Shown piece by piece: positions 33,078 to 60,610 of a stretch of DNA of 64,000 nucleotides (the first letter of the stretch is position 1; every line of letters starts with the position of its first letter). The notes under the pieces were generated by a model. The model was not told the DNA's origin and did no database searches. It worked only from the letters and a program-made list of their open reading frames with translations. The translations under genes and the position numbers were made by a program. Source of the DNA: Escherichia coli. GTDB taxonomy: Bacteria > Pseudomonadota > Gammaproteobacteria > Enterobacterales > Enterobacteriaceae. The DNA is taken from the NCBI RefSeq assembly GCF_003018235.1, contig NZ_CP027437.1. One strand, given 5' to 3'.

Positions 33078-35336
33078 ATGAGCGATATGGCAGAGCGCCT
33101 TGCGCTACATGAATTTACGGAAAACGCCTATTTAAACTACTCCATGTACGTGATCATGGACCGCGCGTTGCCGTTTATTGGTGATGGTCTGAAACCTGTT
33201 CAGCGCCGCATTGTGTATGCGATGTCTGAGCTGGGCCTGAATGCCAGCGCCAAATTTAAAAAATCGGCCCGTACCGTCGGTGACGTACTGGGTAAATACC
33301 ATCCGCACGGCGATAGCGCCTGTTATGAAGCGATGGTCCTGATGGCGCAGCCGTTCTCTTACCGTTATCCGCTGGTTGATGGTCAGGGGAACTGGGGCGC
33401 GCCGGACGATCCGAAATCGTTCGCGGCAATGCGTTACACCGAATCCCGGTTGTCGAAATATTCCGAGCTGCTATTGAGCGAGCTGGGGCAGGGGACGGCT
33501 GACTGGGTACCAAACTTCGACGGCACTTTGCAGGAGCCGAAAATGCTACCTGCCCGTCTGCCAAACATTTTGCTTAACGGCACCACCGGTATTGCCGTCG
33601 GCATGGCGACCGATATTCCACCGCATAACCTGCGTGAAGTGGCTCAGGCGGCAATCGCATTAATCGACCAGCCGAAAACCACGCTCGACCAGCTGCTGGA
33701 TATCGTGCAGGGGCCGGATTATCCGACTGAAGCGGAAATTATCACTTCGCGCGCCGAGATCCGTAAAATCTACGAGAACGGACGTGGTTCAGTGCGTATG
33801 CGCGCGGTGTGGAAGAAAGAAGATGGCGCGGTGGTTATCAGCGCATTGCCGCATCAGGTTTCAGGTGCGCGCGTACTGGAGCAAATTGCTGCGCAAATGC
33901 GCAACAAAAAGCTGCCGATGGTTGACGATCTGCGCGATGAATCTGACCACGAGAACCCGACTCGTCTGGTGATTGTGCCGCGTTCCAACCGCGTGGATAT
34001 GGATCAGGTGATGAACCACCTCTTCGCAACCACCGATCTGGAAAAGAGCTATCGTATTAACCTCAATATGATCGGTCTGGATGGTCGTCCGGCGGTGAAA
34101 AACCTGCTGGAAATTCTCTCCGAATGGCTGGTGTTCCGCCGCGATACCGTGCGCCGCCGACTGAACTATCGTCTGGAGAAAGTCCTCAAGCGCCTGCATA
34201 TCCTCGAAGGTTTGCTGGTGGCGTTTCTCAATATCGACGAAGTGATTGAGATCATTCGTAATGAAGATGAACCGAAACCGGCGCTGATGTCGCGGTTTGG
34301 CCTTACGGAAACCCAGGCGGAAGCGATCCTCGAACTGAAACTGCGTCATCTTGCCAAACTGGAAGAGATGAAGATTCGCGGTGAGCAGAGTGAGCTGGAA
34401 AAAGAGCGCGACCAGTTGCAGGGCATTTTGGCTTCCGAGCGTAAAATGAATAACCTGCTGAAGAAAGAACTGCAGGCAGACGCGCAAGCCTACGGTGACG
34501 AACGTCGTTCGCCGTTGCAGGAACGCGAAGAAGCGAAAGCGATGAGCGAGCACGACATGCTGCCGTCTGAACCTGTCACCATTGTGCTGTCGCAGATGGG
34601 CTGGGTACGCAGCGCTAAAGGCCATGATATCGACGCGCCGGGCCTGAATTATAAAGCGGGCGATAGCTTCAAAGCGGCGGTGAAAGGTAAGAGCAACCAA
34701 CCGGTAGTGTTTGTTGATTCCACCGGTCGTAGCTATGCCATCGACCCGATTACGCTGCCGTCGGCGCGTGGTCAGGGCGAGCCGCTCACCGGCAAATTAA
34801 CGTTGCCGCCTGGAGCGACCGTTGACCATATGCTGATGGAAAGCGACGATCAGAAACTGCTGATGGCTTCCGATGCGGGTTACGGTTTCGTCTGCACTTT
34901 TAACGATCTGGTGGCGCGTAACCGTGCAGGTAAGGCTTTGATCACCTTACCGGAAAATGCCCATGTTATGCCGCCGGTGGTGATTGAAGATGCTTCTGAT
35001 ATGCTGCTGGCAATCACTCAGGCAGGCCGTATGTTGATGTTCCCGGTAAGCGATCTGCCGCAGCTGTCGAAGGGCAAAGGCAACAAGATTATCAACATTC
35101 CATCGGCAGAAGCCGCGCGTGGAGAAGATGGTCTGGCGCAACTGTACGTTCTGCCGCCGCAAAGCACGCTGACCATTCATGTTGGGAAACGCAAAATTAA
35201 ACTGCGTCCGGAAGAGCTACAGAAAGTCACTGGCGAACGTGGACGCCGCGGTACGTTGATGCGCGGTTTGCAGCGTATCGATCGTGTTGAGATCGACTCT
35301 CCTCGCCGTGCCAGCAGCGGTGATAGCGAAGAGTAA
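33078..35336 (+). CDS. parC: ParC, topoisomerase IV subunit A
   Basis: 752-aa ORF matching ParC. Confidence 0.95.
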
Positions 35337-35377
35337 TATGCCGGGGAGGGCGCTGTTTCCTCCCGCTTGCAAGGAAC

Positions 35378-35407
35378 GCCGGATGAAACGTTAAGTCGTC
35401 ATCCGGC
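35378..35407. repeat. REP-like imperfect palindrome in the parC-plsC spacer
   Basis: GCCGGATGAAACG...CGTCATCCGGC. Confidence 0.35.
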
Positions 35408-35569
35408 AGCGTATTCAACCCCCGGAAACGATAAAAATTCCCTTGAAACCGTTGTTTATTCATGCGTTGCGATTAACAATACGCTTTTCCAGAGAGCGGC
35501 TTTTAACAATGCCCTAACCTGATTTCAGGTGACGTACAATGCCAGTCTCTCAGACCTTCAGAGGGTGTT

Positions 35570-36307
35570 ATGCTATATATCTTTCGTCTTATTATTACCG
35601 TGATTTACAGCATCTTAGTCTGTGTATTCGGCTCCATTTACTGCCTTTTCAGCCCGCGTAACCCGAAACATGTGGCCACCTTTGGGCATATGTTTGGTCG
35701 TCTTGCACCGCTGTTCGGCCTGAAAGTTGAGTGCCGCAAACCTGCGGATGCTGAAAGCTACGGCAATGCTATTTATATCGCTAACCACCAGAACAACTAT
35801 GACATGGTGACAGCATCGAACATTGTGCAACCGCCGACGGTGACGGTAGGTAAAAAGAGCTTGCTGTGGATCCCCTTCTTCGGGCAGTTGTACTGGTTAA
35901 CCGGCAACTTATTGATCGACAGAAACAATCGCACTAAAGCTCACGGCACTATTGCGGAAGTCGTGAATCACTTCAAAAAACGCCGCATTTCCATCTGGAT
36001 GTTCCCGGAAGGAACTCGCAGCCGTGGTCGCGGCCTGCTACCGTTCAAGACCGGGGCATTTCACGCGGCAATTGCGGCGGGCGTCCCGATTATTCCCGTG
36101 TGCGTCTCTACAACTTCGAATAAGATTAATCTTAATCGTCTACACAACGGTCTGGTGATTGTCGAAATGCTGCCACCAATTGACGTCAGTCAGTATGGCA
36201 AAGATCAGGTTCGCGAGTTGGCTGCCCATTGTCGTTCGATAATGGAACAAAAAATCGCTGAGCTCGATAAAGAAGTCGCAGAGCGCGAAGCCGCCGGAAA
36301 AGTTTAA
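35570..36307 (+). CDS. plsC: PlsC, 1-acyl-sn-glycerol-3-phosphate acyltransferase
   Basis: 245-aa ORF with HxxxxD and PEGTR acyltransferase motifs. Confidence 0.9.
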   Translation: MLYIFRLIITVIYSILVCVFGSIYCLFSPRNPKHVATFGHMFGRLAPLFGLKVECRKPADAESYGNAIYIANHQNNYDMVTASNIVQPPTVTVGKKSLLWIPFFGQLYWLTGNLLIDRNNRTKAHGTIAEVVNHFKKRRISIWMFPEGTRSRGRGLLPFKTGAFHAAIAAGVPIIPVCVSTTSNKINLNRLHNGLVIVEMLPPIDVSQYGKDQVRELAAHCRSIMEQKIAELDKEVAEREAAGKV

Positions 36308-59105: not shown

Positions 59106-59173
59106 TGATTAAAGCCGGATGCGGCGTAAATTGAACTGCACCCCAAATGTTGGACACAATCTGACATCTGAAG

Positions 59174-59704
59174 GTGCAGTTTATGAAACATTCATTTGAA
59201 GTAAAACTTGCCGCTGTAAATCATTACCTGGCCGGTCATGCAGGCATCATTTCTACGGCAAAACTCTTTCAACTTTCTCACACCAGCCTCTCACACTGGA
59301 TTAATCTTTTTCTTCTTCACGGTCCTCAGGCACTGGATTGCAGACACAAGCGTAGCTATTCTCCTGAAGATAAACTTTGCGTGGTTCTTTATGCTCTCGG
59401 GCATTCTGAGTCTCTACCCCGGGTAGCTGCCCGGTTTAACATTCCCAGCCACAACACGGTTAAAAACTGGATAAAAGGCTACCGCAAATCTGGTAATGAG
59501 GCCTTTATCAGGCGCAGGAAGGAGAAAAGCATGACCCGTTCTGATGATACCCATGAAAACGAGGCAAACATGACGCCGGAAGAGATGAAGAATGAGCTGC
59601 GTTATCTTCGCGCAGAAAATGCATATCTGAAAGCCATGCAGGAGCATCTCCTGGAAAAAAAGCGCCAGGAGCTGGAGAAAAAACGAAAGTCATCCGGAGC
59701 CTGA
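59174..59704 (+). CDS. IS3-family transposase OrfA (HTH / leucine-zipper part)
   Basis: 176-aa ORF, GTG start; contains slippery heptamer A_AAA_AAG at 59656-59662. Confidence 0.85.
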   Translation: MQFMKHSFEVKLAAVNHYLAGHAGIISTAKLFQLSHTSLSHWINLFLLHGPQALDCRHKRSYSPEDKLCVVLYALGHSESLPRVAARFNIPSHNTVKNWIKGYRKSGNEAFIRRRKEKSMTRSDDTHENEANMTPEEMKNELRYLRAENAYLKAMQEHLLEKKRQELEKKRKSSGA

Positions 59705-59808
59705 GGTGCGGACACTGCCAGTCTGACCTGTTAAAGGCTGCAGGGCTGGCCAGAAGCACGCTGTACTACCAGCTGTCACTGCAGAAGGCTAAGGACAAGT
59801 ATGCTGAT

Positions 59809-60563
<755 letters not shown>

Positions 60564-60610
60564 AAATGCTTTATCCGGCTACATAGCGATAAGCCTGCCA
60601 ATGTTGCGAC

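Follow-up and report, generated by a model that had tools for sequence, protein, structure and literature searches.

A probable degenerate y-type REP palindrome between parC and plsC of Escherichia lies at the parC mRNA 3' end and is a target of IS1397

The window analyzed here, a stretch of 64,000 nucleotides, is E. coli chromosome. It carries parC, the coding sequence of DNA topoisomerase IV subunit A, on the plus strand at 33078..35336 (ORF list, and RefSeq annotation of an identical E. coli sequence), with a TAA stop codon whose last base is 35336, and the downstream neighbor plsC on the same strand at 35570..36307 (ORF list and RefSeq annotation). The 233-nt spacer between the two genes shows no differences from the MG1655 copy and is near-invariant in ~5,400 genomes, a 401-nt parC-plsC query being matched at 99% identity or more in 5,407 of 5,425 complete genomes. 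Comparison of 80 orthologous loci revealed that parC-plsC synteny is kept throughout Enterobacterales, with spacers of 38-530 bp. A permissive-threshold Rfam search of 35200-35700 returned noise only, a scan for consensus promoters and terminators found no site anywhere in the spacer, and a literature search found no relevant report tying a repetitive extragenic palindrome (REP) to parC and plsC. The MG1655 RefSeq record NC_000913.3 contains zero REP repeat features and omits even the canonical REPs after hybG; that no REP is annotated between parC and plsC is therefore without weight, and annotation cannot decide whether the element described below belongs to the REP family.

Two palindromes follow the parC stop codon, both within 35341-35410, where a sequence-only reading of the window had placed them. 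The first, HP1 (35344..35364, plus strand), was recognized by inspection and folding as a weak GC-rich hairpin, GGGAGG(G)/(T)CCTCCC, that starts 8 nt past the stop codon and has arms at 35344-35349 (GGGAGG) and 35359-35364 (CCTCCC) and a 9-nt loop. Its predicted RNA fold of -11.9 kcal/mol is matched by 61 of 200 shuffles (z = -0.44), and HP1 was rejected as a significant structure in its own right. The second, HP2 (35378..35407, no strand assigned), emerged from palindrome, fold and REP-model analyses as a 30-nt element reading GCCGGATGA-AACGTTAAGTCG-TCATCCGGC, with arms GCCGGATGA at 35378-35386 and TCATCCGGC at 35399-35407 separated by a 12-nt loop. A perfect 9-bp lower stem is topped by an AA bulge and a 2-bp distal stem (CG/CG), and the RNA fold of -17.2 kcal/mol (z = -3.84) was equaled by none of 200 shuffles. 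A shuffled 64-kb window contains 5.1 +/- 2.7 perfect stems of at least 9 bp with loops of 3-20 nt, a chance expectation of ~0.02 per 233-nt spacer; HP2 is thus far beyond chance, and it is the only GCCKGAT...ATCMGGC palindrome in the 64-kb window. In the Escherichia lineages retrieved, from E. coli to E. albertii, the lower stem is unchanged while its flanks have diverged. Covariation values in HP1 and HP2 within Escherichia did not rise above shuffle controls, and the HP2 stem never varies, so that its conservation, being invariance and not covariation, does not by itself prove a structural role in RNA.

The sequence-only reading had proposed that one of the two palindromes is a REP-type element. 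As in REPs, HP2 is an extragenic palindrome in the ~25-35 nt range with the stem base GCC(G/T)GAT...ATC(C/A)GGC. A search of 250 kb of MG1655 for the pattern GCC[GT]GA[TA]...[AT]TC[CA]GGC returned 23 sites, comprising 20 canonical REPs, 2 chance matches within genes, and HP2. The canonical REPs carry GATGCG on one arm (20/20) and TTATC on the other (19/20), the opposition of GATGCG to CTTATC creating a two-base stem mismatch (GC x TT), and 17 of them have a CTAC foot. The likeness of HP2 to the y-type consensus extends to 22 of 30 positions in either orientation and to the 30-nt length characteristic of y-type REPs, but not to the foot or the mismatch: GAAC stands upstream and AGCG downstream in place of the GTAG/CTAC foot, the GCCGGATGA/TCATCCGGC stem is perfect with the AA bulge above it, and only 6-7 of 14 interior positions agree. 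On a REP covariance model (R1) built from the 20 MG1655 REPs, HP2 scores 13.5 bits (E ~0.1, minus strand, 35371-35410; 8.5 bits on the plus strand), against 43-61 bits for canonical REPs outside the training set and no better than the 16 bits of a canonical REP read on the wrong strand, although no other full-length natural match to the model in the 64-kb window scores as high. The proposal of a REP-type element therefore holds for the stem base and length of HP2 and does not hold for the foot, the mismatch and the score. What HP2 has in common with REPs comes down to the palindromic base of the stem and the geometry, and strict tests of membership leave it outside the family. It is nevertheless an ordinary degenerate member of that known repeat family, not a new kind of element. 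The REP-associated tyrosine transposase TnpA_REP needs both the GTAG foot and the stem mismatch in order to bind and cleave its substrate (Ton-Hoang et al., PMC3333891). Since both are gone, HP2 is predicted to be no substrate of TnpA_REP and hence an immobile, "dead" REP.

The same observations can be read differently, namely that HP2 is not derived from a REP at all but is a locus-specific hairpin that happens to share GCCGGATG...CATCCGGC, and that the insertion sequence IS1397, whose insertions are described below, reads just that short stem. The low covariance-model score, which derives from the stem only, the missing foot and mismatch, and the poorly matching interior are all as this reading would have it. 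We nevertheless consider it quite unlikely. The length and register of HP2 are those of y-type REPs, and palindromes of this quality, irrespective of sequence, are expected far less than once per spacer. Three of the 20 canonical REPs likewise lack CTAC, which makes loss of the foot ordinary decay. Every Escherichia lineage retrieved, represented by E. albertii, E. coli and three divergent genomes of the genus, has the element. Its E. albertii orthologue is near-canonical in both foot and interior, reading GTAcGCCGGATgAGGCaTT where canonical REPs read GTAGGCCGGATAAGGCGTT (foot GTAc, interior AGGCaTT). Lastly, genuine REPs occupy the HP2 site in Salmonella: in Salmonella enterica subsp. arizonae (L012, 1255-1343) two head-to-head REPs scoring 19.9 and 32.7 bits directly follow the parC stop codon, where E. 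coli has HP1 and HP2. Within the set of 80 orthologous loci, REP-model matches in this spacer are confined to Escherichia and Salmonella; no E. coli-type REP was found in the corresponding spacers of Citrobacter, Enterobacter, Klebsiella and other genera. In one locus from an uncultured Pseudocitrobacter (L037), the first ~140 nt of the spacer hold a palindromic repeat of another kind, CCCTCTCCCC...GGGGAGAGGG flanked by GGGTGAGGG, which is present as two inverted copies in the same position behind parC, and it would seem that other genera place their own repeat families there.

The linker between the two hairpins, GCTTGCAAGGAAC (35365..35377, plus strand), when aligned with canonical REP feet, could be read as what is left of a tail-to-tail junction between REPs (CTAC-nnn-GTAG in canonical form), and the E. 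albertii junction CTGCAAGGTAC, that is CTgC-aag-GTAc, looks like such a junction as well. A BIME consists of two opposed REPs with a short linker. HP1 stands 13 nt upstream of HP2; on the REP covariance model its E. coli copy stays below 7 bits while the E. albertii copy reaches 16.0 bits. HP1 may thus be the decayed partner of HP2 in a tail-to-tail pair, a "decayed BIME" that is kept here as no more than a possibility because HP1 of E. coli earns no REP-model score. HP1 would then be the remnant of a first REP unit; otherwise it would be the counterpart of a hairpin found at this position in other genera.

Nearly all of the 80 orthologous spacers carry a stable GC-rich hairpin within 75 nt of the parC stop codon, the exceptions being the shortest ones (e.g., L077, L082 and L086). 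These hairpins mostly fold at -14 to -31 kcal/mol and are often followed by a T/A-rich tail, as in Enterobacter, Klebsiella and others, and they plausibly represent the ancestral parC terminator. In E. coli the position is held by HP1, which lends some substance to the arrangement proposed in the sequence-only reading, a terminator (HP1) followed by a REP, and to the corresponding explanation in which parC transcription ends intrinsically at HP1 while HP2 is a REP behind it with no role at the 3' end. An intrinsic terminator is a GC-rich stem-loop followed by a U-tract. HP1 is no more stable than its shuffles and is followed by GCTTGCAAGG, with the tail GCTTGCAAG, neither providing a T-tract; the tail of HP2, AGCGTATTC, has no U-tract either, and the terminator scan was negative at both hairpins.

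Published maps of RNA 3' ends speak to the same point. In the TRS study (PMC10687069), MG1655 position 3163636 (range 3163631-42, signal 0.75) is entered as a "Primary" 3' terminus of parC, and a second dataset in the same work gives a parC terminus at 3163637 (signal 0.61). These minus-strand positions map to 35414-35415 of the window, 7-8 nt past the HP2 stem, the mapped parC terminus as a whole spanning 35409..35420 on the plus strand (PMC10687069, Supplementary Data 2, 3 and 4). The parC 3' UTR is given there as 80 nt, the HP2 fold is shown upstream of the end, and no parC terminus is listed at HP1. The roles assigned in the sequence-only reading are therefore swapped: it is behind HP2 that the dominant parC 3' end falls, and a terminator function of HP1 appears unlikely. 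The maps do not agree throughout, as the Term-seq data of Adams et al. (PMC7815308) contain no 3' end at HP2 and place the sole 3' end in the spacer at MG1655 3163495, window position 35556.

A steady-state 3' end just downstream of a stable stem-loop without a U-tract is the hallmark of protective stem-loops, and from the end 7-8 nt downstream of the stem we therefore regard HP2 as the hairpin that defines and protects the 3' end of parC. In E. coli, stem-loops without a U-tract stand immediately before the 3' ends of many mRNAs and protect against PNPase and RNase II (Dar and Sorek, 2018, PMC6061677), and a quarter of such 3' stem-loops are REPs (PMC6061677); as far as the work is summarized in that paper, REPs were described as mRNA stabilizers by Newbury et al. 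in 1987. At the RNA level, then, the HP2 stem-loop (-17 kcal/mol) would define the parC 3' end and shield it from exonuclease. The position of the end is mapped; it would arise either by weak termination at HP2 or from longer transcripts that are trimmed 3' to 5' as far as HP2. By base count, the 43 nt behind HP2 (35408..35450, plus strand) are C-rich and G-poor (13 C vs 6 G) and possibly constitute a rut-like region, for which the bicyclomycin (BCM) data give no backing. Adams et al. report no Rho region for parC or plsC and a Rho score of 0.96 ("No") for 800-nt windows around 3163495 (PMC7815308), which speaks against a Rho-dependent origin of the end, although the plsC promoter may mask read-through there.

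Downstream of this tract, a block upstream of plsC (35431-35540) is conserved in Enterobacteriaceae, with GCGATTAACAA present in 45 of the 80 orthologous spacers. It contains an inverted repeat, TTGTTTAT at 35452-59 and ATTAACAA at 35472-79, a third copy, TTTAACAA, at 35502-09, and a -10-like TACAAT at 35535-40, 35 nt before the plsC ATG, where Enterobacter and Klebsiella have TATAAT at the same offset. To judge from these motifs, the block looks like a regulated plsC promoter with a putative transcription-factor site. The end at 35556 (MG1655 3163495), 14 nt upstream of the plsC start, is classed as a strong "orphan" RNA 3' end (Adams et al., 2021, PMC7815308), with a Rho score of 0.96 and an intrinsic-terminator score of 1.26 (PMC7815308).

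The sequence-only reading had further suggested that the spacer is a possible target for REP-specific insertion elements like the one seen after hybG, and this suggestion is confirmed. The element after hybG, identified by reading the sequence, is a 1432-bp copy of IS1397, a member of the IS3 family, at 59132..60563, with its transposase encoded on the plus strand. It interrupts a y-type REP, of which the halves lie at 59114-59131 (GCCGGATGCGGCGTAAAT) and 60564-60582 (AAATGCTTTATCCGGCTAC), and the target duplication AAAT is nt 15-18 of the split REP. In HP2, a 1432-bp IS1397 is found in the loop in the unrelated strains BH100N, NY1601 and ECA64. The insertion point and target-site duplication, TAAG at 35392..35395 (no strand assigned), was located from the junctions in three loci (L001, L091 and L092), those of BH100N reading ...GCCGGATGAAACGTTAAG|IS|TAAGTCGTCATCCGGC with TAAG duplicated. 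TAAG is nt 15-18 of the HP2 palindrome, the register of the hybG insertion. Four records bear junctions (BH100N, NY1601, and ECA64 twice), and an uninterrupted spacer is missing from an equal number, 4 of 5,425, with BH100N in both sets; the three strains thus appear to have the sole interrupted spacers among the 5,425 genomes. Their parC flanks differ from one another at 21-109 positions per 2,300 nt and their IS1397 copies at 8-11 positions per 1,432 nt, and BH100N is a laboratory sub-strain derived in 1987 whose sequenced parents lack IS1397 in HP2. Because flanks and insertion sequences differ and the BH100N parents lack the insertion, the three insertions are most plausibly independent hits on a hotspot.

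The other IS1397 copies that were read lie in loops of canonical REPs, and the four canonical targets read include both orientations. The three HP2 insertions share one orientation; since canonical targets show both, assignment of a polarity to HP2 from the orientation of IS1397 was rejected. The HP2 insertions show that IS1397 requires neither a GTAG foot nor a stem mismatch to pick its target. The REP stem and the loop geometry are enough, and slightly more sites are therefore open to insertion. Within orfB of the window's IS1397 copy (60151-60170) the REP model gives a 20-bit match, ACTGCCTG|CAGGCCTACAGA, which corresponds to a z-type REP that lacks its center and has its two outer ends joined directly. 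Other IS1397 copies (L001 and L004-L006) give 14-20 bits at this site, and the match may be due to chance within coding sequence.

A role of HP2 mainly as a DNA site, binding gyrase, IHF or Pol I or structuring the chromosome near the topoisomerase IV gene, would suit the invariance of the stem sequence throughout Escherichia, and all three proteins have been reported to bind REPs and BIMEs (PMC1525189). However, binding of gyrase and IHF needs complete BIME-2 and BIME-1 arrangements, respectively, with specific linkers (PMC3333891), of which there are none here, and the mapped RNA 3' end offers a simpler account. We regard such a role as very improbable.

Our results suggest that HP2 is probably an old and decayed y-type REP that became fixed in Escherichia and now serves as the parC 3'-end hairpin in RNA and as a target of IS1397 in DNA. 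The REP would have been fixed in the genus between the parC stop codon and the conserved region upstream of plsC, and at the DNA level the IS1397 transposase would still read it as a REP and insert at the center of its loop. So understood, HP2 accounts for the site at which the parC mRNA ends in E. coli and for a spacer longer than those of sister genera, and the IS1397 insertions in HP2 provide a natural allele for testing REP-dependent mRNA stabilization upstream of an essential gene. More tentatively, and with less than even confidence, we propose that in Escherichia the ancestral parC terminator hairpin, which is still present in other Enterobacteriaceae, gave way to a REP pair. The pair would then have decayed until its own transposase no longer recognized it, its surviving stem being co-opted for the parC 3' end and held invariant. 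If true, the locus would provide a dated case of REP domestication, with a recurrent IS1397 hotspot between the essential genes parC and plsC as a side effect.

Several known systems resemble HP2 in part. Like y-type REPs (GTAG-GCCGGATAAGGCGTTCACGCCGCATCCGGC-A; a BIME component), it is an extragenic 30-nt palindrome that follows a gene at its 3' end, is built on the stem base GCCGGAT...ATCCGGC and has an irregular stem ending in a small distal helix; IS1397 enters the center of its loop, and an mRNA 3' end maps just downstream. Unlike them, it has neither the GTAG/CTAC foot nor the GC x TT mismatch, its interior has diverged, its model score is 13.5 bits as opposed to 43-61 bits, and it is a predicted non-substrate of TnpA_REP. 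Protective 3' stem-loops (PMC6061677) are likewise stable, lack a U-rich tail, have a 3' end a few nucleotides downstream, and are followed by C-rich, G-poor sequence; HP2 may depart from those of Rho-dependent transcripts, as the BCM data around the spacer give a Rho score of ~1. Finally, HP2 is not a canonical REP, unlike the other IS1397 targets read, but it shares with the IS1397 sites in palindromic units the insertion at the loop center, recurrent in independent strains, and with the y-type REP after hybG the 4-bp duplication at nt 15-18 counted from the first G of GCCGGATG.
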